64,000 bases of DNA from Candidatus Magasanikiibacteriota bacterium (GCA_049287025.1 JBAQFA010000051.1:65697-129696), one strand, 5' to 3'. Positions 6,136 through 48,670 are shown, counted from the stretch's first letter. The notes: a model not told the origin generated them from the sequence alone. Made by a program: numbers and translations.

Positions 6136-6142
6136 TTTTTTT

Positions 6143-10187: not shown

Positions 10188-13100
10188 ATGCGAAAAATCA
10201 TCATAGGAGTAGCCGTTTTTGCTCTAGCAATCATGGCTCTACCAAATACAGCCAGCGCTGGTGGCTGTTATTATCCAAGGACAGCTAGTGAAATTATTGC
10301 TAGTAGTCCAACTAAAATAAATTTTGAAAAAACTTATGCTTTGCCTTTGACAGGCTATTGGAGTGATAATGGTGTGATGTTTTCTTCGGACAATGGAAAA
10401 GCTATATATATTAATAGTTATAATCGTGGTGGTTCCACAACAGCTTCTGGTGAATATTCTCTGTCTAATAATGCTACTTGGCCAAAAACTAGTGCAAATG
10501 ATCCATTAAAAATAAATTTTAAAAATGCAGTAAATAAAGTTGGTTTGTATTTAGGTAATGGCGAAGGTAGCGAACCTGTTGTGGCCGTGGTATCTTTATT
10601 TAATAAGTCTGGAGAAAAATTGTGTGATATTGATGTAGATGTTAAGTCAGATAATGTAGATACATTTTTAGGTTTTGAAACTGTAGCTGATTTGTATTCA
10701 ATGACAATTGATTATGGTAATACTACTCTAAGTGAAGAAATAGATGATTTGATGTTTACTTATAGTTCTAAATATGATCCAATTTGTTCAGAAACAGATG
10801 ATGGAGAAGATTATTATGTAAAAGGTGAAACTACTGGTCACTGGCTTTGTGTTGAAGACGGATATCCAATAGTCACGGAAAAAGATGTTTGTGTAGATGC
10901 GAACACTGTAAGAGAATATATGTGTAATAGTGGATGTAATAATATTTTAGCAACCGACGTAAAATGTCCTAACGGTTGTGTAAATGGAGCTTGTGTATCT
11001 CCTAGCGATATTGTGGTGCCAACCTTATCCAATTTTGTAGCTTATGACACAATTAGTGGAATAGGTTTGGTAGAAAATAAAGTTGGCTACAAAAAATATG
11101 GTAGTTATTCAAAACCATTACCAGTTTCAATTTACAATTCAACTAAAGCAATTAAATTATCTTTGATGCTTAAAAATAGCAATGATAATTTTACTTATGC
11201 TTATGTCTGGAATAATAATCCTTCAGATGGTGTAGAAGCTGATTACAGTGAGCAGACTGTGAAATCTATGGCTGGGTCAGCCAATTTTAATTCTTCGGCT
11301 GTGACAACTTTGAATTTAACTGACTATTATCGTGGTAAGTATGTGATGGTGCATGCGTTTGTGAGAAATAATGATGGTAAATCCGAAGTGCCAAATATGT
11401 CAGTAGAAGTAGATGAAGTCGTGCCATTATATTTTAGAATTGAGAAATTAAAAACGCCAACAGTAAATAGTTGTGTAGATTCTGATAATGGTTTAGAAAT
11501 TTATACCAAAGGTAGTACCAAAGGAGAAAAAGAAGGTACTAGAGTTTATGGGATTTATAATGATTCTTGCAGTAATAAAGTTGGTGAATCTGGTTTGTAT
11601 AGTGGTAAATGGGTAGTGGAACAACATTGTAGTGGCCCAGTTGACAAACCATATGTACATACTCAATGGAATGATTGTCCAAATGGCTGTATGGATGGCA
11701 AATGTGCTGAAAAGACTGTTTATGATAATACCATAAAGCCTACGGTAGCTTATCCAACAAACAAACAAGTTCTAACAAATTATCCAAGAGTAGCAACCCT
11801 AAAATGGAATTCAATTAGTGAAGCAGTTTCTTATAATATAGAATTGACATGTGATCATTGTAATAGTGTCGCCTGGCAAGATTATTATAAATGGACTTCT
11901 AAATCTAATTATTATGTTACCACTCCTCTAGATGGTGACAATGAATTTAGATTTAAAGTAAAGGCTGTGTATGCAGATGGTAGTACCAGTCAATGGTCTG
12001 ATTATAGATATTTTAGTTATAATACGTCAGCGTATTCTGAGAGTGTCTGTAGTGACCCAGATGGTAATAATACTAATGTAAAAGGTTATTCTAATGGTCT
12101 AAATAAAGTGACTAACAAACCGATGAATTATGTTGATTCTTGTGTGGTAAGTGACACTAACACGGTTTATGCTTATAGTAGTAATTATGTTAATGAATGG
12201 GTGTGTACCGCAGGAAATATTGTAGATAGTAGAGTTAGCAAGTGTAAAAATGGTTGTGTTGATGGACTTTGTGTTGAAGACAGCGAAGTTAATTATGATA
12301 TATCTGGTACAAGAGTAGTATTTTATATTTCTCTGAACCAGACCATGAAGCATAAAGAAAGCGGAGTAAATATAAAGTTGAATTATTTTGATGATAAAAG
12401 AATTTTGGTAAATTTGGATGGTGGTGCATATTTTGATGAGACAGTTTTGAGTTTAAAGACAAAGACCCAATTTTCCTTGATAAATGACAGTGTAAATAAA
12501 ATTGCCTTTACCTATTTAGGTAAGACAGCTGATGGTAAACAGGCAAAAATTTTACTTGATTATGGTGCAGATACCAATTTGAATGAATATGGTGCAGATT
12601 GTAATTTGAAAGTATATACAAAGGGTGACCAAACTGGTGGTGATGGAGTCTATCGTTTGTATGGTAGTGACAAACTTTATCATAGTGTATCTGGTATTAC
12701 TATGTCAGCTGACCCACTTGAAAAAAGTGCTAAGATTTATTTAGCGCTAAAGGGTGCTAAAGTATCTAATGTATTGATTAGTGCGAGTAGCATGAAATCT
12801 TTTACTTCAGCTAATGAAAAATATAATTTGACAGTTACATATAATGGATCTGATCCTTGTGGTGGTAGTATTATCACAGTAAAAAGTGAAAAGATTAGCA
12901 ATGAGGATTCTTGTTATAATTTATCTGGTATGGGAAACTTAGCTAAAGCTTGGGGTGATAATAAGGTCTGGTATGTGGAAGGTAATAATAAATATTGGTT
13001 TTCTTCAGCCGATGTTTATTTGTCCTGGTTTAGTGATTTCTCTGGTATCAAACTTACTGATGATAGTACAATTAATTCATTGACTCAGGGTGATAATGTT

Positions 13101-13640
13101 TGTCTAAAAACCGTATCAACTTGCTACAATCTTTCTGGTAAAGGTTATTTGGCCAAATCTTGGAATGATAACAAAGTTTGGTATGTTGATAATTCTACCA
13201 AGTATTGGTTTGCTAGTGAAAGTATTTTTAAATCTTGGTTTAAAGATTTTTCTGGAATCAAACTTATCAATGATAGTGTAATGAATTCTTTTGCTCAGGG
13301 TTCTGGTGTGTGTTATAAAGGTAGTATTACTATTCCAGTGGTAGAGAAACCTATCGTATCTTCAGGTGTGTCTTGTGGTAATTCGGCCGGTGGCGATGGT
13401 TTATATAGTATGTGTAAAGGTGATTCTATCCGCCATAGTGATGGGTTTACTATTACCAATCAAGCTTACACTGATAAAGTTTTGTCTTTAAAAACTGATG
13501 GTTTGGTAGCAACTTATATGCGTTTACCTATGAATGTCCCAGTCGTCATACAAGATATTACAGGAAAGAATAAGTATGATGTCACTTATACGCAAAAAAC
13601 AGATAAACACGGTGCATTCTTACAGATTGACAGTAAATAA
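10188..13640 (+). CDS. Large secreted cysteine-rich surface protein (signal peptide; CxNGCxxGxC modules; FN3-like domain; two C-terminal ~75-aa repeats)
   Basis: 1150 aa. Signal peptide 'MRKIIIGVAVFALAIMALPNTASA'. Repeated 'CPNGCVNGACV', 'CPNGCMDGKC' and 'CKNGCVDGLCV' modules. C-terminal duplicated repeat 'CYNLSG.G.LAK.W.DNKVWYV...KYWF...FSGIKL'. Confidence 0.7.
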   Translation: MRKIIIGVAVFALAIMALPNTASAGGCYYPRTASEIIASSPTKINFEKTYALPLTGYWSDNGVMFSSDNGKAIYINSYNRGGSTTASGEYSLSNNATWPKTSANDPLKINFKNAVNKVGLYLGNGEGSEPVVAVVSLFNKSGEKLCDIDVDVKSDNVDTFLGFETVADLYSMTIDYGNTTLSEEIDDLMFTYSSKYDPICSETDDGEDYYVKGETTGHWLCVEDGYPIVTEKDVCVDANTVREYMCNSGCNNILATDVKCPNGCVNGACVSPSDIVVPTLSNFVAYDTISGIGLVENKVGYKKYGSYSKPLPVSIYNSTKAIKLSLMLKNSNDNFTYAYVWNNNPSDGVEADYSEQTVKSMAGSANFNSSAVTTLNLTDYYRGKYVMVHAFVRNNDGKSEVPNMSVEVDEVVPLYFRIEKLKTPTVNSCVDSDNGLEIYTKGSTKGEKEGTRVYGIYNDSCSNKVGESGLYSGKWVVEQHCSGPVDKPYVHTQWNDCPNGCMDGKCAEKTVYDNTIKPTVAYPTNKQVLTNYPRVATLKWNSISEAVSYNIELTCDHCNSVAWQDYYKWTSKSNYYVTTPLDGDNEFRFKVKAVYADGSTSQWSDYRYFSYNTSAYSESVCSDPDGNNTNVKGYSNGLNKVTNKPMNYVDSCVVSDTNTVYAYSSNYVNEWVCTAGNIVDSRVSKCKNGCVDGLCVEDSEVNYDISGTRVVFYISLNQTMKHKESGVNIKLNYFDDKRILVNLDGGAYFDETVLSLKTKTQFSLINDSVNKIAFTYLGKTADGKQAKILLDYGADTNLNEYGADCNLKVYTKGDQTGGDGVYRLYGSDKLYHSVSGITMSADPLEKSAKIYLALKGAKVSNVLISASSMKSFTSANEKYNLTVTYNGSDPCGGSIITVKSEKISNEDSCYNLSGMGNLAKAWGDNKVWYVEGNNKYWFSSADVYLSWFSDFSGIKLTDDSTINSLTQGDNVCLKTVSTCYNLSGKGYLAKSWNDNKVWYVDNSTKYWFASESIFKSWFKDFSGIKLINDSVMNSFAQGSGVCYKGSITIPVVEKPIVSSGVSCGNSAGGDGLYSMCKGDSIRHSDGFTITNQAYTDKVLSLKTDGLVATYMRLPMNVPVVIQDITGKNKYDVTYTQKTDKHGAFLQIDSK

Positions 13641-13994: not shown

Positions 13995-15434
13995 TTAATT
14001 AGTAAAATAATTCATTTGTTTTAATTTTTCAACAGTTTTTATTGTTATTTTTTCAATTACTTCTGGTGTTAAGTCTTTAAATTGCGTTGCTAATTCTTTT
14101 GCAGATTCAGCAATAACTTTGGTAATTTGGCTTGTATAACTTTCGCCATTTTTACTTTCTTTTTTTCTTGTGTCGTCAACAAAAGACACTCCTTTACCAA
14201 TTTTATCAGTAAAAAATGAAGTTTTTTTTCGTACTGCATCCTGTGGTATTTGTGAAATTATTGTTTTAATTGCTTGTAGCCATTGATCGGATTCTGTTTT
14301 TTGTTCTGTTGTCTCTGCTTTCGGTATATATAAATATGCGACACAAGTATCAGTTCTTTCATATGCAGCAAAATCTTTTCTAAACTTGAATTTTAAGCGA
14401 ATTCCGTTTTGATCTAAATAATCAGAAAGTTTACTGAGACATTCTGCAACTTTAGTAGTGCCATCTGGGCTGGCGTTAATATAGAATCGTACCTCTCGTG
14501 CATTATCCTTGTATGGAGCATTACCTTTAAACCAAACGAATCCCGCTGCTTGGTCTGGCTGTTGACCGTCGATAAGTTCTTGTTCGGTAATGTGTCTAAC
14601 TTTAGAAGATTGTGTTACTATATCAATTAATCTGTTACTAATTTCGGTATCGAAGTTTGCAATGAAATTTTCTTTGTCTGGGACATTAATCTCATCTTTT
14701 ACCTCTTGGTCAGTCATACCAGATTTATGTATATATTCATACATTACTACCGGCATTTTTGCTAGCATCTCAACATCACTTAAAGACTGTCGTTTTTTAA
14801 ATTCATCATCTGTTTCCCCAATATTTTTTCTGTTTCTAAATCTATCCATCTTCCCTCGAAAGTCTTTATCATTGAGAACAAGTTGTAGAAAATTTTTAAT
14901 TTGTTCTTCAAACAGTTGTTCTCTTTCAGATTTTATTTTTGTTTCAAGCTTATTGGTTGTTGTTTTTGGTAAAGGTTGTTTTTCTTTCTGCCTGAGATAA
15001 TCTAAAATTTTCTGTCGCAGTTTAACTTGTTCTGGGTCTGTGGTTCCCCAGAGTTCTTGTACAATTTCAGAAGACAGCCCTCGATACTTGGTTGGGATGT
15101 CTTGTTCTGTTATTGGTGGTTCGATACTCTCAGGCTTTGACATTGGCTGTTTTTCCTTGCCTCTTAGATACTCCAAAATTTTTTGACGTTTTTCAATCTC
15201 GTCTGGATGTGAAGTCTGCCAGATCTCTTCAAGTATTTCTGCAGAAATGCCACGATATTGAGGTGGTATATCTTCTTCGGTTGTTGGTTGTTCAGTGTCT
15301 TCTTCCAATTCAAAAAGCGTCTCAGTTGCTAATTTTTCTTGAGCTTTTGTTTGACCAGAAGTTGAACGAGGCTGTTTTTCGGTTGGGTGTAATTCTGGGT
15401 TTATGATTTGTTCTATTTCTTCATCTCTGTCCAT
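13995..15434 (-). CDS. Hypothetical protein with a tandem ~50-aa acidic N-terminal repeat
   Basis: 479 aa. The repeat 'EEDIPPQYRGISAEILEEIWQTSHPDEIEKRQKILEYLRGKEKQP' is followed by a near-identical copy 'EQDIPTKYRGLSSEIVQELWGTTDPEQVKLRQKILDYLRQKEKQP'. No recognisable domain. Confidence 0.6.
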   Translation of the reverse strand: MDRDEEIEQIINPELHPTEKQPRSTSGQTKAQEKLATETLFELEEDTEQPTTEEDIPPQYRGISAEILEEIWQTSHPDEIEKRQKILEYLRGKEKQPMSKPESIEPPITEQDIPTKYRGLSSEIVQELWGTTDPEQVKLRQKILDYLRQKEKQPLPKTTTNKLETKIKSEREQLFEEQIKNFLQLVLNDKDFRGKMDRFRNRKNIGETDDEFKKRQSLSDVEMLAKMPVVMYEYIHKSGMTDQEVKDEINVPDKENFIANFDTEISNRLIDIVTQSSKVRHITEQELIDGQQPDQAAGFVWFKGNAPYKDNAREVRFYINASPDGTTKVAECLSKLSDYLDQNGIRLKFKFRKDFAAYERTDTCVAYLYIPKAETTEQKTESDQWLQAIKTIISQIPQDAVRKKTSFFTDKIGKGVSFVDDTRKKESKNGESYTSQITKVIAESAKELATQFKDLTPEVIEKITIKTVEKLKQMNYFTN

Positions 15435-24896: not shown

Positions 24897-25835
24897 ATGT
24901 TAGAGAATAATAGACAGCTAGATTTGGCTGAATTTTTACAATCCAGTGAATGGGGCAGGTTTCAAGAGTCCACCGGTAAAAAGGTGGTAAATTTTGTGAT
25001 TGATGATATTCAGATACAGGGGCTTGAACACAGTCTGTCTTTTTTAGGGAAATATTTGTATATTCCCAGACTTAAGACATCAGACCTAAGACTTAAGAAT
25101 GTAATTGAATATTTAAAAAGTTCAGATTATATCTTTTTGAGGATAGAACCAATTGAAGAATTTTCAATTTTAAATTTTAAATTTTCAATGATTAAGAATA
25201 GACAGCCACAGACTACTTTAATTTTAGATTTAACAAAATCAGAAGAGCAGTTATTACAAGCCATGCATACCAAGACTCGTTATAATATTCATTTGGCGGA
25301 AAAGCATAATGTAGAAGTGAAAAATGAAAAAGATGTAAATGTTTTTTGGAATTTGAATTTGGAAACTACAGAACGTGATAAATTTAAAAGCCATGATAAA
25401 GATTATTATAAAAAAATGCTGGATAGCGGAATGGCTTTTCAATTAACAGCTTATTATAATGATAAAGCTATTGCTTCAAATATATTTATAAATTATAAAA
25501 ATACTTTTACTTATTTGCACGGAGCTTCGTCCGGAGAATTTAGAAATTTAATGGCACCATATTTATTACAATGGGAAGGAATAAAATTTGCTAAGAGTCA
25601 GGGCTGTGATTATTATGATTTTTGGGGGATTGCCCCTCAGGTAAAAGAAAACGATAAAAAATCCCGTAGTTGTTTTCATAATTTATGTTGGGAAGTTAAT
25701 CATAAATGGACCGGAGTGACTCGTTTTAAAGCAGGCTTTGGCGGACAGGTGAAAGAATATCCAGAAGGAGTAGATATTATTTTAAATAAAAATAAATACA
25801 AAATATATAAAATTATTAGGTTTTTTTGGCTTTAA
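24897..25835 (+). CDS. FemAB-family peptidoglycan interpeptide-bridge aminoacyltransferase-like protein
   Basis: 312 aa. 'FLQSSEWGRFQ', 'TLILDLTKSEEQLLQAMHTKTRYNIHLAEK', 'YDFWGI' are FemX/FemA-like. Carries an in-frame repeat at 25065-25101. Confidence 0.55.
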   Translation: MLENNRQLDLAEFLQSSEWGRFQESTGKKVVNFVIDDIQIQGLEHSLSFLGKYLYIPRLKTSDLRLKNVIEYLKSSDYIFLRIEPIEEFSILNFKFSMIKNRQPQTTLILDLTKSEEQLLQAMHTKTRYNIHLAEKHNVEVKNEKDVNVFWNLNLETTERDKFKSHDKDYYKKMLDSGMAFQLTAYYNDKAIASNIFINYKNTFTYLHGASSGEFRNLMAPYLLQWEGIKFAKSQGCDYYDFWGIAPQVKENDKKSRSCFHNLCWEVNHKWTGVTRFKAGFGGQVKEYPEGVDIILNKNKYKIYKIIRFFWL

Positions 25836-26109
25836 TATTGCCTTTTTTGTGCATATCTTGACTTTTTCTTGATTTTATGCTATATTATTATGTTGATTTG
25901 TGATATAATGAAGACAAAATTAATTTCTTTTTATGAATAAAATAAAGGAAATTTTGGCTAAATTTTGGGATATTTTTACGGTTTATAAACAAGGTAGAGA
26001 CAGATTAGAAAAGGAAGAATATCAGATAATTAAGGATGCAATAGAGGAAGCTAAAATAAACAAAATTCAAAAAATTAGAGAACATATAAATAAATTATAA
26101 TTTTTTACT

Positions 26110-29100
26110 ATGTCTTTTAAAGAATTCAAAAATTTTTTTCAGAGTCCAAAAGGTATAAAAAGAGATGAAAGAATTACCGCATCGGTAAAAGGTTTTTTTG
26201 ATGATAGGAAACAAACAAAAGGAATGGTGGATGCTTATGAATTTGATCGCAAAGAAAAAGAGAGAAATGATGCCGAGGCTAGTAAAATGGTGACATCTAG
26301 AAGGTTTCAAAATAAAGGTGAAAATATTGATGAAGGTGAAAGTGAAGTTCACAGTGCCGTTGAATATCCTGGTAAGTGGGAGATGTTAAAAGATCGATTG
26401 GTTGGTGGTAACAGACAAGAGCCGGTGGCAGATTTTTTGGAAGCAGAAGCTAGGGCTGAAGCCAAGATACATAAGCGTAGAGTACAGGATTGGATTGAGG
26501 GTAGTGAAGATGGTTCAGTAAAAGGTATAAGACAAATAATTGAAGAACAAAATCTTGATATTGATTTGGAATTTGTTTTAGAAAAAATTAATCAAAAAGA
26601 AAAAGATTGGGGTACACATTACGAACAATTTATTAGAGATATATTTAGTATGGTGGCAGAAATGAAAGTAATGATTTATCAGGAAAATCTTGTCCGATGG
26701 ATGACTGATTTGGTTGAAACAGAAGGTTTTGATATTGAAGTTGATCTAGATGGTATTTTGGGTAAATTAAATCAAGCTATAAATAGATCGGGTGGCGACT
26801 TTTCTAAGGTAAATTCGGAATTACAAGAAACAGAAAGAGAAATCAAAATTGAAGTCAAAAGACAAATGCTTTCTGGTTGGTTGGACAAGTTTTTGGCACC
26901 ATCTGAACAGTGTAAAACCGAAAAAGATACAGCTGTCAATGGGGTGGAAGAGGATTTGAAAATTGAGTTAGAAAAAGTGGATGGATTATCAAAGGCAACA
27001 TCTGAAGTAAATAAATTAGTCCAAAAACAAGATGCTTTAGAACTACGTAAGAGAATTTTGTCAGAGGAAATGTTAAAATTAGAGAGATTGGAACAAGAAA
27101 GTGAAGTGGGTGCAGAGGTTGAAGGTGGCGAAGTTGAAGTAGTTGTTGAAGGTGGTGGTAGAAAAAAAGGGAAAAAAGGTAAGAAGGTCGAAACCGCTGG
27201 TAATGCAAGTACAATAGAAGAAAGAAAAGCTAGAGTTCAAAAAGCGATTGATGAATATGAAGATGAATTGAAATTGGCAAGAGCAGAATTGGCTTTGTCA
27301 AGAGAAAAATTAGCTACAATAACTACCCAAGCTGGGGGTTCAGCGGAAAAGGTTAGGGTGTTAAAAGAAAGAAAAAAACAATTACAAGGTGAACAAAAAA
27401 GTGCAGAAGATGAACTTAAAAAAGTTAAGGGAGTTATAGAAACATTTAGACAAGATATTAATACTCAGGCTAAGTCTTCTGGAAGTAATGAAAGCTCATT
27501 TAGATTGGAAATAGCTAGAATTAAACGTAAAGCTTCTAATGATTTGGATAAATTGGGTGGTATAAAAGATTTTCCTGATTTGGATAATATTCCAGAGATG
27601 CCAAAATTAGATCTGCCAGAATTGCCAGATGAGTTTTGTTATTTGCCAAGTGATGTCCAAAGTAAATTATCCAAAAAGAAACCAGTAGATGTAAAAAAAC
27701 CTTGGGAATTGACTGGTCCGATGGCACCAAGTGGAATATTTAGAGCAGCTAGTGGTGGTAAGATTTCTCCTTTTAGAAAGGAAAGAGGCGGAGAAACAGA
27801 AAAAAGTGATAAAGATAGATTGAGAGAAATCTTAGCCGGAAATAATTTGGAGAAAAAAATTCAAGCTTTAGTAAAATGGGCAGAAGAAAAAAATAGAAGA
27901 CAAGGACTAGGTGACGAAAGTGATGAATATAGCGCTTTGAGTTTATTATTACGCGCGGAAAGTTTTGTAAATGGTTTGTCGGATAATGATAAAAAAGTGG
28001 AATGGTTAAAAACCATAGGTACATGGATAAATATGCCAGAAAGGGATAAACAGAATTATGATGCTTTGTCAGATACTGATAGAGCCATAATAAATGATTT
28101 AGAAATTAATTATAATCCTCAAACTGGTAAACCAGAATTATTTAGAAAAGATGACCTGGATAGGCTTGAACAGCAAATAGAGAATGAAAGTGATCCGGAA
28201 AAGAAATTAATTCTTTTGTTAAAAAAAGCCCAATATGAAGCTATGGGCTTGTTAGAAGGTGATTTTAATAAAACTTTGGAATTGGTCAGTCAAGAATTAG
28301 AAAAAATAAAAGATAATTGTGCTAGATTTATTTCCCTAGCTTGTTTGGTGGCAGAAAGAAGAAATAATCTTGGTGCTGATGATGGAGAAACCAAACGTAT
28401 ATTAGGTACGGCTGTGGAAATGACGGAAAAAGTTGAAGACTTGACAGAAAGAGAAAAATTAATAAAAAAATTAATTAAATCATATGGCGCACTTGGTCCA
28501 AGAAAAGAAGCGATTGATCACTTGGTAGGTGATACTAGTGAACCAATTTCAGAACCTGTTGAAGAGTCTGTAGAGACAGAAGAGTTAGATGAAGACGCTC
28601 CAGTCGTTGATGAACAATCTACTAGAACAGAAGATTTTGTTGGTTTTGATTATGATGAAGTTTTTACTGATGATGAAGCAGCTAGTCAAGTAGATGAAGA
28701 TGTGGACTCACAAACTGTTCCAAATCAAGATAAATCAAAGGATGTTGCCAAATTGGCCTGGTTGAAAAACTTGGGTAAAAGACTAGTTCCATCATTTTTG
28801 AAAAGAAATCAAGAAAAAGTTGAACCAAATCAAACTGGACCAGACGTTCAAGAACCAGAACAAGAGAGTGAAAGTGATCAGGAATTCAACAAATTGTTAG
28901 AATCGATGGAAGGAGATCATGTTAATATTAAGCTAAAGTCGTTAGCTGAGTTTGTTCAAGATCAGGAAAGTAAGGGTACTTTTGGAAGTATTTCTGATAG
29001 AGTAAAAGATATGGTTGGAGGGTTGAGTCAGGAACTTAATAAACGAGGAGAAAGAAGTTCAGAAAATACAATGGGAGCATACATTGATTTGGCTAGAGTT

Positions 29101-29451
29101 AATACTGCTTTGAATAATTTTACTGAAGCTAGAAAAAATTATGATAAATCAAGAAAAATGGGTCCATCTATAATTACCAAGGGTCCTGGTTATTATCAAG
29201 ATAGTCATTTGGATCAAACTTTTAAATGGTTGGATGCTATGATTGATGGATATATAAAACTAGGTCCGACTTCAAGAGCAAAGAGTAGAGCCAAAAATTG
29301 TTATAAAGAAATGGCAAAATTAAGAGGATATGTACGTAAGGCAGAAAAGAAGTATAGAGGAGATCCTGATAAACAGCCATTTGGTAATCATTTATATGAA
29401 GATATTAACGCAAGGATGGAAGGTTATGTACATCAAATAAATAAAAAATAA
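26110..29451 (+). CDS. Giant acidic hypothetical protein (coiled-coil and low-complexity regions)
   Basis: 1113 aa. No TM helix or signal peptide seen. E/K/D-rich, with a long coiled-coil segment and a 'GGEVEVVVEGGGRKKGKKGKK' stretch. No recognisable domain. Confidence 0.6.
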   Translation: MSFKEFKNFFQSPKGIKRDERITASVKGFFDDRKQTKGMVDAYEFDRKEKERNDAEASKMVTSRRFQNKGENIDEGESEVHSAVEYPGKWEMLKDRLVGGNRQEPVADFLEAEARAEAKIHKRRVQDWIEGSEDGSVKGIRQIIEEQNLDIDLEFVLEKINQKEKDWGTHYEQFIRDIFSMVAEMKVMIYQENLVRWMTDLVETEGFDIEVDLDGILGKLNQAINRSGGDFSKVNSELQETEREIKIEVKRQMLSGWLDKFLAPSEQCKTEKDTAVNGVEEDLKIELEKVDGLSKATSEVNKLVQKQDALELRKRILSEEMLKLERLEQESEVGAEVEGGEVEVVVEGGGRKKGKKGKKVETAGNASTIEERKARVQKAIDEYEDELKLARAELALSREKLATITTQAGGSAEKVRVLKERKKQLQGEQKSAEDELKKVKGVIETFRQDINTQAKSSGSNESSFRLEIARIKRKASNDLDKLGGIKDFPDLDNIPEMPKLDLPELPDEFCYLPSDVQSKLSKKKPVDVKKPWELTGPMAPSGIFRAASGGKISPFRKERGGETEKSDKDRLREILAGNNLEKKIQALVKWAEEKNRRQGLGDESDEYSALSLLLRAESFVNGLSDNDKKVEWLKTIGTWINMPERDKQNYDALSDTDRAIINDLEINYNPQTGKPELFRKDDLDRLEQQIENESDPEKKLILLLKKAQYEAMGLLEGDFNKTLELVSQELEKIKDNCARFISLACLVAERRNNLGADDGETKRILGTAVEMTEKVEDLTEREKLIKKLIKSYGALGPRKEAIDHLVGDTSEPISEPVEESVETEELDEDAPVVDEQSTRTEDFVGFDYDEVFTDDEAASQVDEDVDSQTVPNQDKSKDVAKLAWLKNLGKRLVPSFLKRNQEKVEPNQTGPDVQEPEQESESDQEFNKLLESMEGDHVNIKLKSLAEFVQDQESKGTFGSISDRVKDMVGGLSQELNKRGERSSENTMGAYIDLARVNTALNNFTEARKNYDKSRKMGPSIITKGPGYYQDSHLDQTFKWLDAMIDGYIKLGPTSRAKSRAKNCYKEMAKLRGYVRKAEKKYRGDPDKQPFGNHLYEDINARMEGYVHQINKK

Positions 29452-29464
29452 TTAATCATATTTT

Positions 29465-32400
29465 ATGACAAGAGAATCAACTCCAACAATTGAACAACCG
29501 AAAGATAAAGCAAAAGAACGTATAATTTTAGAGAAAAGAGCGAAGGAACAAATAAAATTAATAAGTGATATGGCACGAGAAAGTCGTTTGCATGATTATT
29601 ATAATATGCTGAGAGCAAAAGGTGAAAAAATGGCAGTAAAGGCTGACGCAGAAATTTTTAATAAGAGGGGTGAAAGTAAGAGAGGGGTAGATTCTGATGC
29701 CGCCAATCTGTGGGCGAATCAAGTGACAAATAAATTAGAAAGTTTTTTGGATAGAAAAGAAAAAAATAAATCTTATATAAAGGAAATAGAACTTATTAAT
29801 AAAGCCATTCAAGAGAGTAGACTTAATGATTATTATTTGGAACAAAAATCTGCCGGTGATGCTGTAGCTGTTGAGGCTGATACTAAGGTTTTTGGTACTG
29901 GTGATAGAAAGCGTGGTAAAGGAAATGATGCTGCTAACCAATGGGCTAATGAAAAAGTAAAAAAATTGGAAGAAATGATTGCTGGAAGTGTTTCAGAAAA
30001 AGAGATAAAAGAATTACTTGATGTTTTAGATGGTAATAATTTAGTTGATTCTGAAGTTAGTGCAGAAACTCCAACCAAGCCAGTTGATGTGGCGGAAGCG
30101 AAAGAGACAAAGCCGTCTACTGTAAGAGTACACTTGGTTGAAACTGGTGTAAAAGAAGAAGGATCGGAAGGTGGACCTAGAAGGAAATCAACAATTTTAG
30201 GAGATCCACAGCCAGAATCTGGTGTTGCCTCAGCACCCAGAGCAGAACAAAGTAATTCTGAATTTCTTACTAAATTGGAAACAGAGAAAGACCCTGCCAA
30301 ACGAATTGCTTTGTGGTTGGAATTGGCCAAGGAACAAAAGAAAAAAGGCCAAGGTGATTTTGAAGATTCTTTAGTAAAAGCTGAGAAAGAATTATCAAAA
30401 ATAGATGATATTAATAAAAAATTAAATTTATTAGTTAATATCATTGATGTTAGAATTAGTTTGGGTGCTGATGAAGTAGAAACAGGTAAACTTTTGGATG
30501 AAGCTGGTAAACAATTGGATAAATTAACTGATACAGATTTAAAAACTGTAATTCGTCATAATCTAATTATATTAAATGGAAAAATGACAAATGAGGGCGC
30601 TGAAATAACAGCATTAGTGGACAAATTAAAGAAAGTACAAGGTGATTTAAAAGCTGTAAAAAATGATCGTGATACTACAGGAGAAAAGAATTATCCAATG
30701 ATACATGTAAAAAAACCAGAGTCTGGCGCTATTACGACTGGTGATAATGGCGATTTGGAAAAATATAGAAAAATTATTTTGGAACAACCTAGAACTGTGT
30801 TTGATGAACAACTTTCAGAATTTGCAAATCGTAAAAATTCAGAATCAGATGAAATAGTTGAACTTTCAGAAGATGAATTAATGACCTCAGAAAAATTAGC
30901 TGACGCTTTGTTAGATTATTTTTGGGATTACATCAAAGAAAATCCAGATGCTGGATTTGTACCTTTGAAAAGTTTTGTGGATGTAAATAAATTAGGTGCC
31001 AAAGATATTCAAGAAATAATAGACAATTTAAATAAAAGAGGTTATCCAGTCCAGGGTGGTTATCCTATACAAATGGGCGATCCAACAATGGGTAGAATAA
31101 ACATTGGTGAACCAGTACTAAAGAGGATAATTTCTGCAGAAAATGATGAAGCAAAAAAAATTGGTGACAATGAGGCAAGTGCTTATAGATTATTAGCTTT
31201 GGCTACTAATCGTATTTTGGTAGCAAAGGGTAGACCGTCTGAATCATTAGATTCTGGTGTTAGATTTGCTCTAGATCAGGCCTGGCAGGTGGTACAAGAT
31301 CTGAATAAAGATGATAAGAATTTTGATTTGGTAGATAGATTAAGAGAAGAAATTGCTGTGTATTGGCAAGAATACGGTGATAATGGAAAATATTTAGAAG
31401 TGATGAGTTGGGACAGTGGTAGATCTAAAAAAACGGATAGTTTTGAAGCTCCATCTTTACCTGACAACACCATCGACCTCCTCGACGAATCAGGTTATGA
31501 AAGATTGGTACAACAATACCATGAAGCCTATCCAGATGAAGATGAAGAAGTACTAAAAAGTTTTGTTCAATCTCAATTAGATAAAGGTGTCACCACTATC
31601 AAAGCACCAGATCTAAAACATTTAAAAGAATTGGCTGATATATATACATATGAATATGGTATTAATCTAAAAACTGATGCCTATCGTGGATTAATCTCAG
31701 CCTTTAATGAAAATTTCCCTGACGCCACTCCAATTGAGTTAGTCACAATTGAACGTGCCTTAGAAGCTCTACCAGATGATCCAAAACAACTAGAAGCGGC
31801 TCGCTCAACATTTTTAAGTGTGCTTGAGGCTAAGAAGAGAAAGGGTGTACAAGATTTTGAACAATTTACTAGAGATTTGTCCCAAGCTTTTTCTGGATTA
31901 TCTGAAGCCGGTAAAAGGATTAATGATATGATTGAATATGGAAAAAGATTAGATAAAGATGCAGAAGTTCAAACCATGTTAAATGACATTAAGACTTGGT
32001 CAATTGATCAATTAGAATCTGAATTGGCCAAATATGGTAATGCTACAGTTATTAATTCTCCAGAAAGAAATGCTTTGAGTATTGAAGAGTCTGTCCGTCT
32101 TTCGTTTATTCAGGATGAATTGAGGAGAAAAACAGATGAAGTTTCGGTTGGTAGTTTGCGAACAACTGAAGCCGAAACCCAACAAGAATTTGCCGACATG
32201 ACTACAGATAGATTGGTATCTGAATTGATTAGATACGGTAGAATCGGTGGTTTTGATCCGTTTAACGTGAGGAAAATGTCAACAATTTTGTTGAATAATG
32301 CAGATCGTCCACGCTTTGATTATATTCGTAGTGAATTATTGAAAAGACCAGCTAATGAAGTAGCTAAAGCTAGGTTAGAATTGATTGGCAAAAACAGAAC

Positions 32401-33619
32401 ATCACGTGGGGCTACAGAAAGAGTATTGCGTGATTGGGATGCAACTAAAGATAGACCGGACTATGTAGATGATTTTGAACCTAATTTGGATGAAGATGCT
32501 TATCATGAATTAATTAAATCATTTCATGATAGATTTCCTGATGCCACTCCAGCTGAATTAGCTACAGTTGAACATGTTTTAGAAGGCCTACCTAATGACC
32601 CTAAACAATTGGAAGCGACTCGCTTGGCATTTATGAGTGTGCTTGGGGCTAAAGGAGATAAAGACGGACAAGCAGAAGAAAAAAGCAGACTCTTGTTAGA
32701 AGATAGTTTAAAAGGGACTGGATCAAAACCAGATGAACTAGTAGAAGAACAATTACAACAAAAAAGATTTGATGAATTTACTAGAGATTTGTCCAAAGCT
32801 TTTGCTGAACTTGGTAATATAGATTTTAAAATAAAACCAAGCGCTATACCCGATATCTCTAATGCTTATCATGAGTTAGCAGGTCTTGAATTTGATTCAG
32901 ATGAATTAAATGCATTACAATCAGATTTGGATACACGTGGAATTGATTACTCCTCTTTGTTAAAAGAAGATAAAAAAGGTCTTGATTCAGACAAAGTCGT
33001 AGATGCTGTAACTTTGGCTGCTGGCCTAGGTGTTGGTGTTTCTGTAGATGCACTTAAAAATATTCCCGTCGCTATAAGAAAGGGTTGGCTTGCAAAAGGA
33101 TTAGACTTTATTCTTGGAAGAAATAAAAAAAATAAACGACCAGAAATAGTATTAAAAACTGGTGCCCAAGAAGATTTAGATGTTGGGTTTGAAGATGACG
33201 AAGCCACTGAATCTACTGAACCTGGTAGAACCATACCATTTGCTTTACAAGAAGACGAAGAACCTTTACCATTAGAAAAATTAAAAAAAGGGTTAGCGGT
33301 TGAAGGGGGCGAAGCTGAAATTGATGGTAAAATTTCATCCAGGATGTCCAACCAAGAAAAAGAAGCTGGTAATGCAAAAGATCCAGAAAAAAGAACACAA
33401 GCATTTTTAAAATTGGCTAATGTTAGAGTGGCTGATTATGAGGCTGGACATGATGTGATAAATTTAGTAGGGGCGAGAAGCGTTTTAAATAAGGCTGAAC
33501 TATCTGCTAGACAAGTAAAAAATCCCAAAATACGAAAAGGTTTGATAGATGATATAGTTGTGTACTGGCAAAGACTTGGAGATAATGATACCGCCGGTAA
33601 AGTACGTGCTGGAAAGTAA
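29465..33619 (+). CDS. Giant acidic hypothetical protein with internal duplications
   Basis: 1384 aa. Internal repeats 'FPDATP(I/A)EL(V/A)T(I/V)E..LE.LP.DPKQLEA.R..F(L/M)SVL' occur twice, and 'L(H/N)DYY...(A/V)DA..(F)..(K/G)(R/D).KRG...DAAN(L/Q)WAN' occurs twice. A 'VYWQ..GDN' motif occurs twice. Starts 13 bp after the upstream giant. Confidence 0.6.
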   Translation: MTRESTPTIEQPKDKAKERIILEKRAKEQIKLISDMARESRLHDYYNMLRAKGEKMAVKADAEIFNKRGESKRGVDSDAANLWANQVTNKLESFLDRKEKNKSYIKEIELINKAIQESRLNDYYLEQKSAGDAVAVEADTKVFGTGDRKRGKGNDAANQWANEKVKKLEEMIAGSVSEKEIKELLDVLDGNNLVDSEVSAETPTKPVDVAEAKETKPSTVRVHLVETGVKEEGSEGGPRRKSTILGDPQPESGVASAPRAEQSNSEFLTKLETEKDPAKRIALWLELAKEQKKKGQGDFEDSLVKAEKELSKIDDINKKLNLLVNIIDVRISLGADEVETGKLLDEAGKQLDKLTDTDLKTVIRHNLIILNGKMTNEGAEITALVDKLKKVQGDLKAVKNDRDTTGEKNYPMIHVKKPESGAITTGDNGDLEKYRKIILEQPRTVFDEQLSEFANRKNSESDEIVELSEDELMTSEKLADALLDYFWDYIKENPDAGFVPLKSFVDVNKLGAKDIQEIIDNLNKRGYPVQGGYPIQMGDPTMGRINIGEPVLKRIISAENDEAKKIGDNEASAYRLLALATNRILVAKGRPSESLDSGVRFALDQAWQVVQDLNKDDKNFDLVDRLREEIAVYWQEYGDNGKYLEVMSWDSGRSKKTDSFEAPSLPDNTIDLLDESGYERLVQQYHEAYPDEDEEVLKSFVQSQLDKGVTTIKAPDLKHLKELADIYTYEYGINLKTDAYRGLISAFNENFPDATPIELVTIERALEALPDDPKQLEAARSTFLSVLEAKKRKGVQDFEQFTRDLSQAFSGLSEAGKRINDMIEYGKRLDKDAEVQTMLNDIKTWSIDQLESELAKYGNATVINSPERNALSIEESVRLSFIQDELRRKTDEVSVGSLRTTEAETQQEFADMTTDRLVSELIRYGRIGGFDPFNVRKMSTILLNNADRPRFDYIRSELLKRPANEVAKARLELIGKNRTSRGATERVLRDWDATKDRPDYVDDFEPNLDEDAYHELIKSFHDRFPDATPAELATVEHVLEGLPNDPKQLEATRLAFMSVLGAKGDKDGQAEEKSRLLLEDSLKGTGSKPDELVEEQLQQKRFDEFTRDLSKAFAELGNIDFKIKPSAIPDISNAYHELAGLEFDSDELNALQSDLDTRGIDYSSLLKEDKKGLDSDKVVDAVTLAAGLGVGVSVDALKNIPVAIRKGWLAKGLDFILGRNKKNKRPEIVLKTGAQEDLDVGFEDDEATESTEPGRTIPFALQEDEEPLPLEKLKKGLAVEGGEAEIDGKISSRMSNQEKEAGNAKDPEKRTQAFLKLANVRVADYEAGHDVINLVGARSVLNKAELSARQVKNPKIRKGLIDDIVVYWQRLGDNDTAGKVRAGK

Positions 33620-33642
33620 TTTGTCTGAGTAAAAAATTAGAC

Positions 33643-34218
33643 ATGAACAAATTTAAATATTCTTGGTCACAAAAATTATTTTTAAGAATCAATGCCGAGA
33701 TTGGCAGGCGAATTTGGCTTGATGAGATAATGAAACTGGCTGCCCACTGGTTAATTTATCTATACTCTTTTATTGTTTTGGTTTGGGGAGTGATTGTCTT
33801 AACACCGGTTGAGCTGAAATTATTTATAAAACTTCTTTTAACCGTGGTTGCTTTGAGTAACGTTATTGTTTGGCTCTTAGCAATTATTTGGCGTCACCCT
33901 AGACCAATTGAAGAATTGCCAAATGTAAAAGAAATTGTTTTACCCTTACAGACTTTTCGGTCATTTCCTTCTATTCACACTATGTTGTCGTTTATTCTTT
34001 TGTTTTTGACAATTCTTAGTGGAATTGGTATCTTGGGAATAATAATATTTTTTATTATTTCTGTAATTATTGCTACCGCGCGAGTGTATGTCGGAGTTCA
34101 TTATCCTCGTGATATTATTGGGGGAATATTATTTGCATTATTTTTTTCTGTAATTGTTTTTTGGTTATTAGAAAATGTTTCACAGCCGGTTTATCTTTGG
34201 TTGATAAAACTTATTTAA
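33643..34218 (+). CDS. PAP2-family membrane phosphatase (undecaprenyl-diphosphatase / PA phosphatase-like)
   Basis: 191 aa, multi-TM. PAP2 motifs 'WRHPRP' (KxxxxxxRP), 'PSIH' (PSGH) and 'ARVYVGVHYPRD' (SRxxxxxHxxxD). Confidence 0.75.
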   Translation: MNKFKYSWSQKLFLRINAEIGRRIWLDEIMKLAAHWLIYLYSFIVLVWGVIVLTPVELKLFIKLLLTVVALSNVIVWLLAIIWRHPRPIEELPNVKEIVLPLQTFRSFPSIHTMLSFILLFLTILSGIGILGIIIFFIISVIIATARVYVGVHYPRDIIGGILFALFFSVIVFWLLENVSQPVYLWLIKLI

Positions 34219-34226
34219 TATTATTT

Positions 34227-34931
34227 ATGAAGGCAATAATTTTGGCCGGGGGGTTGGGTACACGTTTACGTCCATTGACCTTAGAGACGCCTAAACCACT
34301 TTTACCAATCAAAGGTATCCCGATGGCAGAACAGGCGATTTTGAATTTTAAAAAATATGGTATTACTGATATTGTTTTATCTATTGGTTATTTGGCCGAT
34401 AAAATTAAAGAGTACTTTGGTAATGGTGAGAAGTGGGGAGTACAGATTGCTTACTGTGTAGAAGATGAACCTTTGGGTACTGGTGGAGCAATCAAAAAGG
34501 CAACTGAAGGCATAAAAGAAACTTTTATAGCTATTAATGGTGACAATTTGGCAGACTTTAATTGGGCGGAAATAATTTCTGTCCATAAAAAAAATCAAGC
34601 AAAAATTACTTTGGCACTTTTTCCAGTAGAAGACGTTACTCAATTTGGTATTGCTGAATTGGAGGGAGACAAAATCAGGCGTTTTATAGAAAAGCCAAAA
34701 GTTGAGGAAGCGCCCTCAAATTTAAATAATGCCGGCGGTTATATAATTGAACCAGAAGCTCTGGATATTTTGCCAACGGGGGTTTCTTCTATTGAACGTG
34801 ATTGTTTTGAAAAACTTGCAAGTCAAGGTGTGGTGTATGCCTATCAGCACAATGGGCAGTGGTATCCAACTGATACTTTGGAAAAATATAAACTGGCGGA
34901 TGAGAAGTTTGTGCCAGTCGTCATTTTTTAA
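34227..34931 (+). CDS. Sugar-1-phosphate nucleotidyltransferase (NTP_transferase family)
   Basis: 'MKAIILAGGLGTRLRPLTLETPKPLLPI'. Start set at ATG 34227. The track ORF start at 34161 overlaps the PAP2 gene. Confidence 0.8.
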   Translation: MKAIILAGGLGTRLRPLTLETPKPLLPIKGIPMAEQAILNFKKYGITDIVLSIGYLADKIKEYFGNGEKWGVQIAYCVEDEPLGTGGAIKKATEGIKETFIAINGDNLADFNWAEIISVHKKNQAKITLALFPVEDVTQFGIAELEGDKIRRFIEKPKVEEAPSNLNNAGGYIIEPEALDILPTGVSSIERDCFEKLASQGVVYAYQHNGQWYPTDTLEKYKLADEKFVPVVIF

Positions 34932-39111: not shown

Positions 39112-39603
39112 ATGTGTAGTCGAGAAGTAGACTTAAGTTTTGGAGAATTGGCTAGAAAAATAAAGTATGGGCCAAGACCTAGTACGGAAAAAATAGAACA
39201 AGATTTTTTTGGGGAAGGAAAAGAGCTTCCCCAGTCTTTTTTGGATAAAGTGACAGATTTTTTAATTAGAGAGGATCACTACTCGCCTAGACCAGGACAC
39301 CACAGAGTCTTCGATTCCATTTTTATGTTAGAAGGTCATAAAATTTTGGTTCACTATATATTGAGAGAACGTTTTGACCATAAGAATCAAACAGATGATT
39401 TGTTAACACATGATGGTATGGGCTATATTAGGATAGGAGAAGGAGAATTGCATAATAGTATGATAGAAATTGATGATAAAAATCCAGAAGTGGGAGAAAG
39501 AGAGACGCTGGGTCTAACCGATGATAATTTGGTTAAATTAATTAGGAAAGAGATGATCACTTATCTACGTAGTCTTGGAGAATTAGCTTTTAAAGAAAAA
39601 TAA
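39112..39603 (+). CDS. Hypothetical protein
   Basis: 163 aa. No recognisable domain. Confidence 0.45.
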   Translation: MCSREVDLSFGELARKIKYGPRPSTEKIEQDFFGEGKELPQSFLDKVTDFLIREDHYSPRPGHHRVFDSIFMLEGHKILVHYILRERFDHKNQTDDLLTHDGMGYIRIGEGELHNSMIEIDDKNPEVGERETLGLTDDNLVKLIRKEMITYLRSLGELAFKEK

Positions 39604-39607
39604 AAAA

Positions 39608-39630
39608 TCGGGGTATGAACCTCGGTTTTT
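39608..39630 (+). terminator. Rho-independent terminator (hairpin with loop tatgaa)
   Basis: tcgggg-tatgaa-cctcgg followed by T5. An inverted copy of the same hairpin lies at 40787. Confidence 0.55.
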
Positions 39631-39633
39631 AGT

Positions 39634-39662
39634 TTGACAAAACACGAAAAATGTGCTATAAT
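39634..39662 (+). promoter_or_regulatory. Perfect-consensus sigma70 promoter (TTGACA-17-TGnTATAAT)
   Basis: TTGACA at 39634-39639, 17-nt spacer with TG at 39654-39655, TATAAT at 39657-39662. Lies 54 bp upstream of the TSP3 gene. Confidence 0.55.
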
Positions 39663-39715
39663 ATCTCTAGTTTTTAAATAAAATTGGCTAAATAAAGCCA
39701 AATAATTAGAAAAAT

Positions 39716-40321
39716 ATGAAAGAAGGACCATGGTTTAAAACGGCGGCTAAATTTGTCATACCATTGGTTGGATTAGGAATGGCAAGCCCAAATGCTGAAG
39801 GAAGAGAGCTTAAGTTTGAAAAAAATAAAGCTTCATATGCTATTGACCCCGATGGTGATGGTGTACCATCTGTACGTGAGGACTCAGAGGGTCGACTGGT
39901 TAGAGGTGATAATTGTCCAAAAAAGCCCAATCCTGACCAATCGGATGCTGATTATGATGGTGTTGGAAATGCATGTGACAATTGCCCTGAGGAAAGAAAT
40001 CGAAGGGAGAATCCTGGTGAGAGTAAAAGATACCGGGTGGGAGGGGATGGTTCTATCATTGGTGATCCTTATGAAATATTTGAGAAAGCTAAACAGCCAG
40101 ATAAAGATGGTGACGGTATCGGCGATGAATGTGATTTTGATGGCAATGATGTGGATGGTGATGGCATTATTAATGGCGCTGATAATTGTCCACATAATCC
40201 GAACAAGGGTCAATCAAATTTGGACCACGATGGTCTTGGTGATGCATGTGATGACGATGCTGATGGGGATGAAATTTCTAAAAAGAATGATAGAAATGAC
40301 TTAGATCCAAATAAATTTTAA
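39716..40321 (+). CDS. Thrombospondin type 3 repeat (calcium-binding) protein, secreted
   Basis: 201 aa. N-terminal hydrophobic signal. Repeated 'DNCPxxPNxDQSDxDxDGxGxACD' units, e.g. 'GDNCPKKPNPDQSDADYDGVGNACDNCP', 'DKDGDGIGDECD', 'DNCPHNPNKGQSNLDHDGLGDACDDD'. Confidence 0.7.
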   Translation: MKEGPWFKTAAKFVIPLVGLGMASPNAEGRELKFEKNKASYAIDPDGDGVPSVREDSEGRLVRGDNCPKKPNPDQSDADYDGVGNACDNCPEERNRRENPGESKRYRVGGDGSIIGDPYEIFEKAKQPDKDGDGIGDECDFDGNDVDGDGIINGADNCPHNPNKGQSNLDHDGLGDACDDDADGDEISKKNDRNDLDPNKF

Positions 40322-40356
40322 AATTATTTTATATTAATTCAGTCAATTATAAAAAT

Positions 40357-40779
40357 ATGGGAAATCCTACACAAGAAGGAATAAATCCAAGTGCTCGAGA
40401 AGTTGAAGGAGCTTTTTTTGGGACAGATTCTCGTGGAAAAAAATATCAACCTTTAGAAACTGATGAGGAAATTTTCGTTAGAGAAAGAGCAAAAAAAGTA
40501 AGTAGATTGAAAGAATTGTTAAGATATTGGAATAATGGAATTGATGATTTTGATATCACTACACGTCCGGTAATTGATGACGACGTAGAAAAACTTGTAT
40601 CTGGTGGATATCCTATGGCGGTAGCGGAAACTGCTGAATGTTTAAGATTTTTAAAACACGATTGTGGTATGAGTGAAAATGATGTCAAAAATTCACTTGT
40701 AGGTGTGACTCCTATTAATTCCAATTGGTTTGACAGAGACTTAGAAAAACACATTTTAGAAGTGTACAGAGAAATTTAA
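40357..40779 (+). CDS. Hypothetical protein
   Basis: 140 aa. No recognisable domain. Confidence 0.45.
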   Translation: MGNPTQEGINPSAREVEGAFFGTDSRGKKYQPLETDEEIFVRERAKKVSRLKELLRYWNNGIDDFDITTRPVIDDDVEKLVSGGYPMAVAETAECLRFLKHDCGMSENDVKNSLVGVTPINSNWFDRDLEKHILEVYREI

Positions 40780-48565: not shown

Positions 48566-48670
48566 CAGAGGATGCTCAGTTTCGGCCAAAGGCCGACCAG
48601 CCTCTGGCTGGGGTTAGAGCGTCCCGATTTTACATCGGGAAGGTCAGAAGTTCAACTCTTCTCGGGTCTA
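48566..48670 (+). other. Partial tRNA-Val duplicate lacking a 5' acceptor strand, with the anticodon arm replaced by hairpin tcccga-ttttaca-tcggga (UUA anticodon-like loop)
   Basis: 48613-48670 repeats GGTTAGAGCG ... AGGTCAGAAGTTCAACTCTTCTCGGGTCTA, the exact 30-nt 3' end of tRNA-Val. The preceding 48 nt contain the hairpins tcggcc-aaa-ggccga and agcc-tct-ggct. No sequence pairs with the 3' acceptor strand. Confidence 0.4.

Follow-up and report, generated by a model that had tools for sequence, protein, structure and literature searches.

Two very large, adjacent genes in a metagenome-assembled genome (MAG) of a Candidatus Magasanikiibacteriota bacterium, an ultrasmall member of the Patescibacteria/Candidate Phyla Radiation (GCA_049287025.1), raise the question of what two giant proteins without recognisable relatives may do for this organism and how their genes came to be in its chromosome. 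We analysed these genes, referred to here as P1 and P2, within a window of 64,000 nucleotides (JBAQFA010000051.1:65697-129696; all positions are counted from its first letter). The original prediction had described them as tandem giant acidic proteins with internal duplications and no recognisable domains, candidates for a lineage-specific cytoplasmic scaffold or effector pair. Our analyses indicate that P1 and P2 are genuine genes under selection, that they form an orphan pair of distant paralogues, and that they lie in a 7.87-kb block gained at a junction whose flanking genes are adjacent in three related genomes. We tentatively read their products as cytoplasmic helical-repeat proteins that bind partners or serve as scaffolds rather than as enzymes.

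26110..29451, + strand: P1 (WA057_05820), 1113 aa, acidic, predicted all-alpha, in no known family
29465..33619, + strand: P2 (WA057_05825), 1384 aa, acidic, predicted all-alpha, without cysteine, in no known family

An open reading frame (ORF) listing and translation reproduced the proposed coordinates and the 13-bp gap between the genes exactly, and both products are identical to the hypothetical proteins annotated under these locus tags in the MAG. P1 and P2 are on the same strand in different frames, and a TAA at 29453-29455 closes the P2 frame right after the P1 stop, which rules out a single gene split by a frameshift. With a stop probability of 0.087 per codon at the local base composition, the chance of a stop-free run in DNA of 34% GC is ~1e-44 for the 1113 codons of P1 and ~1e-54 for the 1384 codons of P2; each of the other five frames contains 33 to 212 stops. 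G+C content falls from the first to the third codon position (GC1>GC2>GC3) in both genes, as in other genes of the window, and relative synonymous codon usage (RSCU) correlates with that of the rest of the window at 0.93 (P1) and 0.95 (P2). GC3 in the pair (0.19 to 0.20) is at the low end relative to the other window genes (0.21 to 0.33), and the leaders of both genes are AT-rich and lack a Shine-Dalgarno sequence, like those of every other gene in the window. Both the codon usage and the translation-start context therefore look native. Ratios of nonsynonymous to synonymous divergence (dN/dS) between the internal copies described below, including the module common to P1 and P2, are 0.29 to 0.65. 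Because of the ORF length statistics, the stops in the other frames, the codon-position gradient, the RSCU correlations and dN/dS values below 1, we conclude that P1 and P2 are two protein-coding genes under selection. Since the source is a MAG and the two ORFs lack homologues, domains and expression data, they might be decaying or spurious ORFs or an assembly chimera. This explanation is close to refuted: besides the coding signals, the NCBI contig and a Logan assembly made independently from run SRR28062879 show the same gene order and identical junctions on both sides, and both flanks run on into conserved genes of the same lineage.

The composition of both proteins agrees with the description of them as acidic, E/D/K-rich and free of transmembrane helices. 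Aspartate and glutamate make up 20.1% of P1 and 19.1% of P2 and lysine and arginine 16.7% and 15.1%, with net charges of -38 and -56, and both proteins are lysine-rich. A Kyte-Doolittle scan found no transmembrane-grade 19-mer in either protein; the top segment (1.59; P2 residues 1178-1196) contains two aspartates. Neither protein has a signal peptide, and both N termini are hydrophilic, which is consistent with the proposed cytoplasmic location.

Family searches likewise bore out that the pair has no recognisable domains, with no significant match in Pfam, NCBIfam, PHROGs, PADLOC-DB or the sequences of the Protein Data Bank (PDB). P2 had no Pfam match at E <= 1, and P1 had sub-threshold matches only, the best to TPR_12 (E 0.021; 15.4 bits against a cutoff of 30.1), followed by TPR_10 and TPR_2 (~11.6 bits against a cutoff of 27). 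NCBIfam and PDB sequences gave nothing for either protein. In PHROGs, neither P1, P2 nor a 55-codon ORF directly upstream of P1 fell into a family (best E 0.038 to 0.11). PADLOC-DB returned no defence match, with none for P2 or the 55-aa ORF; the best for P1 was ZorA, below threshold (E 0.092, 9.5 bits), on its long-helix region, so a known anti-phage defence system was not identified. A word-index search of 5.8 billion protein clusters retrieved only self matches for P2, for P1 and for P1 without its low-complexity long-helix region, and an exhaustive HMMER search of 1.84 billion representatives with P2 residues 1-1200 retrieved only itself at E <= 0.001. Using tblastn, neither protein matched any of 50,697 phage records and P2 matched none of 72,556 plasmid records; IMG/VR held no match to either. 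There is no paralogue of P1 or P2 elsewhere in the window or in the nearest related genome and, because the proteome of the MAG is itself in the searched database, apparently none in the same genome. As judged by these comparisons, P1 and P2 are an orphan pair without a detectable relative among ~15 billion known proteins and belong to no known family, every family-match test having come out negative. We also recognised no catalytic signature in either protein.

How were such large proteins built? Internal comparison points to repeated duplication of helical modules, above all in P2.

29549..29980, + strand: P2 tandem N-terminal duplication, SRL(H/N)DYY...DAAN.WAN, residues 29-95 and 107-172
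31568..31903, + strand: P2 FPDATP...DPKQLEA...F(T)RDLS unit, copy 1, residues 702-813
32390..32815, + strand: P2 FPDATP unit, copy 2, with a 31-aa insertion, residues 976-1117
31256..31384, + strand: P2 VYWQ..GDN helical unit, copy 1, residues 598-640
33470..33586, + strand: P2 VYWQ..GDN unit, copy 2, C-terminal, residues 1336-1374
26536..26883, + strand: P1 weak two-copy repeat in the N-terminal helical domain, residues 143-258
28174..28527, + strand: helical module common to P1 and P2, P1 copy, residues 689-806, the best-predicted part of either protein
30272..30619, + strand: helical module common to P1 and P2, P2 copy, residues 270-385

All three duplications proposed for P2 were recovered by BLASTP of protein pieces. 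The two N-terminal copies are 45% identical (E 3.5e-15; dN/dS 0.29). The FPDATP units are 46% identical (E 5.6e-22) and remain recognisable in DNA, where 31643-31833 and 32462-32652 are 72% identical (DNA repeats D1 and D7). The VYWQ..GDN motif occurs at P2 positions 632 and 1366, the second at the C terminus as proposed, against a chance expectation of none, and the units around it are 35% identical (E 0.002). The claim of internal duplications is thus firm for P2, with E values down to the order of 1e-22, and much less so for P1, whose sole internal repeat is weak (residues 143-198 against 201-258, 24% identity, E 0.003).

P1 and P2 are also related to each other. P1 residues 689-806 and P2 residues 270-385 are 31% identical over 118 aa (E 9e-7), and the P2 module at 263-400 is in turn related to residues 741-830 in the FPDATP region (z 5.9, P 3e-4). 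A helix-start motif, DPxK(K/R/Q), is enriched, with two occurrences in P1 and four in P2 where ~0.15 are expected. Derivation of all modules from one 'DPxK(K/R)...GDF' unit was only partly supported, by the P2 263-400/741-830 pair; the C-terminal copy gave P 0.058, and a two-sequence hidden Markov model (HMM) of the unit found no further copies. Alignment of the C-terminal halves of P1 and P2 as colinear paralogues was not significant (P 0.11). Sequence comparison therefore indicates that P1 and P2 are distant paralogues, recognisable as such over a helical module of ~115 aa only, and that P2 especially was enlarged by repeated internal duplication of helical modules.

We modelled P1 whole and P2 residues 1-1200 by single-sequence AlphaFold2 and assigned the helices of P1 by DSSP; confidence was low, with a mean predicted local distance difference test (pLDDT) score of 46.9 for P1 and 42.8 for P2. 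Both models are uniformly alpha-helical with long unstructured stretches and show consecutive helical hairpins.

26923..27549, + strand: four very long, coiled-coil-like helices (65, 42, 44 and 20 aa) in the P1 model, residues 272-480
28528..28740, + strand: strongly acidic P1 linker, predicted disordered, residues 807-877, net -18 per 50 aa, pLDDT ~30
28870..29448, + strand: P1 C-terminal helical domain, residues 921-1113, predicted helices spanning 921-1112, with a sub-threshold TPR-like match at 984-1016

In the P1 model, a disordered N terminus (residues 1-75) precedes a helical domain (76-261) whose helices at 137-261 span the weak repeat. The very long helices follow, interrupted by a Gly/Lys-rich stretch at 334-365, and a Pro-rich linker (481-566) leads to the helical modules at 567-806, the best-predicted part (pLDDT 62 to 79). 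The acidic linker has no secondary structure in the model and carries an acidic-aromatic motif, FVGFDYDE; related motifs (GFDYDE, GFEDDE and EFDSDE; DNA repeat family D4) are common to the acidic linkers of P1 and P2. P2 is modelled as a chain of helical modules with linkers between them. An intermediate-filament-like protein does not fit this arrangement, as long helices occur only at P1 272-480 (19% of P1), where they are broken, and P2 has no comparable region.

The original prediction had held that placement in a well-characterised family by structure-based search would count against it. Foldseek searches of the PDB with both models, and of BFVD with that of P1, returned no match at or below E 0.001, although this test is weak with models of such low confidence. 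The non-significant PDB matches (E >= 0.1) were mostly to tetratricopeptide repeat (TPR) and HAT proteins, 14-3-3, alpha-SNAP and designed repeats, and the best BFVD matches were phage tape-measure proteins (E >= 0.038, TM ~0.1, low-confidence model). Beyond suggesting long helices or helical hairpins, these lists of generic matches appear uninformative. When profiles of the repeat pairs were compared with PDB sequences, the profile of the common module (A3) matched a designed helical-repeat protein, 7udk (E 6.6e-4), and the other two profiles matched nothing.

How the pair came to its position was addressed by comparison with related genomes. The genes lie in the following block.

25787..33660, + strand: 7.87-kb block with promoter-like sites, a 55-codon ORF, P1 and P2, between FemAB and PAP2
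25858..25909, + strand: promoter-like region, consensus matches only, 24 nt 5' of the 55-codon ORF
25933..26100, + strand: 55-codon ORF, MNKIKEILAKFWDIF...HINKL, 9 bp 5' of P1

A scan of GTDB genomes anchored on FemAB found one relative, Magasanikbacteria UBA11710 (L001), and metagenome contigs anchored on RNase III added three more (L004, L006 and L009); a metagenome scan with PAP2 as the anchor returned nothing. By blastn and tblastn, the window and L001 align colinearly across >25 kb, where neighbouring proteins share 70 to 97% aa identity. The interval from 25786 to 33661 corresponds to just 52 bp in L001 (10887 to 10939), where FemAB and PAP2 overlap by 4 bp. The two genes are likewise 6 bp apart in L004 and 18 bp apart in L009, and in L006 (Ga0209542_10000015) their junction holds an unrelated 183-aa NUDIX-like gene (7575..8126, - strand). 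The row of envelope genes that contains the block, FemAB-PAP2-(NTP-transferase)-YceG, is otherwise conserved. Since FemAB and PAP2 are adjacent in three relatives and separated by one unrelated gene in the fourth, comparison of these loci indicates that the two genes were adjacent ancestrally and that the 7.87-kb block was gained later, at a variable junction where genes seem to have been acquired repeatedly. Together with the self-only database matches, the missing block at the syntenic site in all four relatives strongly supports the suggestion that the pair is lineage specific.

Within the block, the promoter-like region comprises two matches from a consensus scan, TTGACT-17-TATATT with a TG at 25858-25886 and a perfect extended -10 element, TGaTATAAT, at 25901-25909. 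Gene calls in the NCBI and the Logan assemblies both include the 55-codon ORF, which has no counterpart in L001. Because the gaps between this ORF, P1, P2 and PAP2 are 9, 13 and 23 bp and no terminator-like site was found on the + strand from 26188 to 34752, the ORF, P1 and P2 look co-transcribed, and PAP2 onward is probably included. No structured RNA was found in the block.

The age of the duplications bears on where the block came from. Internal copies and the P1-P2 module have dS of 0.96 to 1.84 and dN of 0.47 to 0.80, and orthologues of the flanking genes in UBA11710 have dS mostly of 0.48 to 0.98, dN of 0.016 to 0.32 and dN/dS of 0.03 to 0.32. With saturation taken into account, the duplications seem no younger than the split between the species. 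Because the internal copies appear to have diverged at least as far as the organism has from its nearest relative, the block most likely came from an unsampled donor of similar composition, for example another Patescibacterium or one of its mobile elements, and was probably not born in place after speciation. Alternatively, the block may have evolved exceptionally fast.

In another explanation, P1 and P2 would belong to a known family but have diverged so far that homology is masked by biased composition, repeats and fast evolution. The dN between internal copies exceeds that of neighbour-gene orthologues and makes fast protein evolution evident, the paralogy of P1 and P2 is itself visible over ~115 aa only, and failure of homology detection is documented as a cause of apparent lineage-specific genes (PMC7660931). 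Yet the syntenic site of the closest relative is empty, leaving no diverged orthologue there to miss, the exhaustive HMMER search with P2 found nothing at E <= 0.001, and the repeat-pair profiles led to a designed repeat protein only. We consider this explanation quite improbable.

A clean 7.87-kb presence/absence difference, at a junction that is also variable in L006, could also mark the cargo or remnant of a Patescibacteria mobile element or phage, with structural, tape-measure-like, scaffolding or anti-defence genes brought in by the element and not shaped for a role in the cell. The block has its own promoter-like sites, the orphan status of its genes is typical of phages and mobile elements, and the best, non-significant BFVD matches of P1 were to tape-measure proteins. 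Against this stands the absence, at the block boundaries and within it, of an integrase, a transposase or other recombinase, terminal inverted repeats and a target-site duplication, so that an integrative mobile element (insertion sequence, transposon or genomic island) was not recognised; tRNA genes lie 2.8 kb from the junction, not at it. There is no other phage-like gene in or beside the block, whose neighbours are cellular envelope and housekeeping genes, and the pair has no PHROGs family, no match in phage records or IMG/VR and, for P2, none among plasmids. Codon usage is indistinguishable from that of host genes, and the BFVD matches (E >= 0.038, TM ~0.1) come from a low-confidence model. 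A phage tail tape-measure or other structural protein thus lacks a family, a phage record and a morphogenesis-module context. Overall, a mobile or phage origin of this kind seems clearly unlikely.

What, then, might P1 and P2 do? We favour, at somewhat less than an even chance, the reading that they form a cytoplasmic pair of non-enzymatic, multivalent helical-repeat proteins whose accessory role is binding or scaffolding. Arrays of helical-hairpin modules resembling TPR or alpha-solenoid units, together with ~200 residues of very long helices in P1, would be joined by long acidic disordered linkers carrying the acidic-aromatic motifs (GFDYDE/GFEDDE/EFDSDE), an architecture that would act through partner binding and not through catalysis. 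P1 and P2 would probably assemble together into a scaffold. Such a role fits because both proteins are predicted to be all-helical, are built of repeats and lack a catalytic signature; their weak or sub-threshold matches (TPR_12 and the designed repeat protein) are all to helical-repeat proteins, a type that also prevails in the non-significant Foldseek lists from the PDB. Because sister species lack the genes, the role would be an accessory one, in host interaction or conflict and not in housekeeping.

Several points weigh against this reading. None of the analyses yielded positive functional evidence, and a P1-P2 complex is deduced only from adjacency and paralogy. With models this poor (mean pLDDT 43 to 47), the label helical repeat depends on secondary structure and on weak matches, and membership in the TPR clan (CL0020) stays below the Pfam gathering score. 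The heptad (3.5-residue) periodicity of the long P1 helices is only modest. Membrane binding by the basic WL..GL..FL.RN helices was not supported either, as their hydrophobic moment does not rank high. The search for homologues of P1 was by word index, with exhaustive HMMER covering P2. As for the history of the locus, values of dS near or above 1 are saturated and make the dating rough, and the insertion hallmarks listed above are missing.

Comparison with known systems places the favoured binding or scaffold reading more precisely. TPR-like and alpha-solenoid scaffolds (the TPR clan, HAT, alpha-SNAP and designed repeats) are similarly all-alpha, are made of repeated helix-turn-helix units and lack recognisable catalytic residues, with a binding role expected. 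Where TPR proteins carry a tandem array of at least three 34-aa repeats wound into a superhelix, the units recognised in P1 and P2 are long (~45 to 140 aa), few and spaced by long acidic disordered linkers; no P1 or P2 repeat reaches a family threshold, and there is no confident solenoid model. In coiled-coil cytoskeletal proteins such as crescentin, FilP/Scy, Ccrp and EzrA, a continuous coiled-coil rod makes up most of the molecule, and each is conserved across its clade. They resemble P1 and P2 in being cytoplasmic and non-enzymatic with long helices, and often in lying near envelope or division genes (here FemAB, PAP2 and YceG). Unlike in these proteins, only ~200 of the 2497 residues of P1 and P2 are in long helices, and the pair is absent from sister species. 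A bactofilin gene (PF04519, E 1e-22; 4091..4549, + strand) follows a histidine kinase gene in the window and may be relevant if P1 and P2 are scaffolds.

As a rival to this reading, P1 and P2 may be translocated effectors. They would be synthesised in the cytoplasm without a Sec signal and delivered on contact, for example by a type IV secretion system (T4SS) of Patescibacteria, into or onto a host bacterium, and would there engage host targets through their helical-repeat and coiled-coil modules. Orphan coiled-coil and helical-repeat effectors are found among the Dot/Icm substrates of Legionella, and the general profile of T4SS effectors comes from Legionella and Coxiella. Like that repertoire, P1 and P2 are strain-specific, fast-evolving, acidic orphans without a signal peptide, built of repeats with coiled-coil or helical modules; Dot/Icm-type effectors are likewise large proteins that evolve quickly and are specific to single species; they contain internal repeats and coiled coils, have neither signal peptides nor homologues and are located in accessory insertions. 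They differ in that P1 and P2 have no identified translocation signal or dedicated chaperone, that the putative target of P1 and P2 would be a bacterium and that the window contains no gene for a T4SS ATPase. T4SSs are widespread in Patescibacteria, usually without a relaxase, and are thought to have been co-opted for non-conjugative functions with unknown substrates (PMC12102498), which also favours the effector explanation, as do two proteins with VirB2-like T4SS_pilin domains and one of the HopA1 effector family in the window. On the other side, neither protein has a recognisable secretion signal, none being defined for the T4SSs of Patescibacteria, no VirB4 or VirD4 gene or chaperone gene is adjacent, the block lies among envelope-biosynthesis genes, and the data fit a role in the organism's own cytoplasm equally well. 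We therefore regard translocation as unlikely, though worth keeping in view. A more specific version, that an ultrasmall episymbiont gained a new protein family after speciation as cargo of its relaxase-less T4SS, with the FemAB|PAP2 junction serving as a hot spot for cargo swapping, is a long shot. If true, the pair would supply the first candidates for effectors that a Patescibacterium translocates to act on a bacterial host.

The remainder of the window is ordinary chromosome with tRNA genes, RNase P RNA, HisRS, UvrD, NDK, QueA, Tgt and many envelope genes. Upstream of the pair are genes for a DUF4012 protein, a DUF11 protein, a SpoIIAA-like protein, RNase III, NusB, L32 and the FemAB-family transferase, and downstream are those for the PAP2 phosphatase, a nucleotidyl transferase and YceG/MltG. 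Other differences from L001 were seen. The nucleotidyl transferase beside PAP2 (34161..34931) is only 30% identical to its L001 counterpart (11439..12239), indicating a non-orthologous replacement. L001 lacks counterparts of three small genes at 39112..40779, one of them (39716..40321) for a thrombospondin type-3 repeat protein, and in turn has ~2.2 kb extra (5725..7911) beside a tRNA-Arg/Lys pair.

A third very large gene, 54025..63999 on the + strand, runs past the end of the window and is stop-free for at least 3325 codons; it encodes VirB2-like T4SS_pilin, Big_5, pentaxin-like and two Laminin_G_3 domains. Directly before it, 51900..54020 encodes a 706-aa protein with the same T4SS_pilin and Big_5 start, and the two look like giant surface proteins that are anchored by pilin domains and encoded in tandem. 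The larger (>3325 aa; 54025..>63999) is, like P1 and P2, the product of a very large, lineage-variable gene in a small genome. It differs from them in being a surface protein with recognisable beta-rich, adhesion-type domains, its N-terminal pilin domain presumably serving as a membrane anchor, whereas P1 and P2 are predicted to be all-alpha and have no export signal; we found no sequence similarity between it and either of them. Another large protein (1150 aa; 10188..13640, + strand) is Cys-rich, has a signal or anchor sequence at its N terminus and contains internal repeats; Pfam gave no match for it, and it is probably also at the surface. A 479-aa protein encoded at 13995..15434 on the - strand matches the HopA1 effector family (PF17914, E 4e-11), which is known from type III effectors of plant pathogens and is unexpected in a Patescibacterium.

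Two tRNA-like genes also stood out. At 48599..48671 (+ strand), between tRNA-Val(GAC) and tRNA-Ile(GAT), ARAGORN reported a 'tRNA-Stop' whose TTA anticodon would recognise UAA. The locus is below the gathering score of the Rfam tRNA model, and a suppressor-like tRNA, a pseudo-tRNA and a false positive are all conceivable. At 5459..5541 (+ strand) lies an 83-nt tRNA-like gene whose anticodon ARAGORN could not assign ('tg') and which scores 49 bits against the Rfam tRNA model. The RNase P RNA gene follows it directly (5586..5999, + strand; 103.4 bits against a gathering score of 100).

Large, lineage-specific helical-repeat or coiled-coil proteins in accessory insertions are already familiar as a general kind, orphan genes are very common in Patescibacteria, and nothing yet points to an unusual mechanism. 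Genomes in this group are ~1 Mb, and 7.5 kb spent on two orphan proteins in a genome of that scale implies a strong and very local selective reason. Because sister species do without these genes at a locus that is otherwise conserved, the pair offers a clean example of accessory genes gained recently, in a lineage about whose interactions with hosts next to nothing is known. The most useful leads are this clean evidence of insertion and the effector possibility. If P1 and P2 are cytoplasmic scaffolds, they would illustrate how module duplication builds large repeat proteins in reduced genomes; if they are delivered to a host, they would offer a first handle on the substrates of Patescibacteria secretion machinery.

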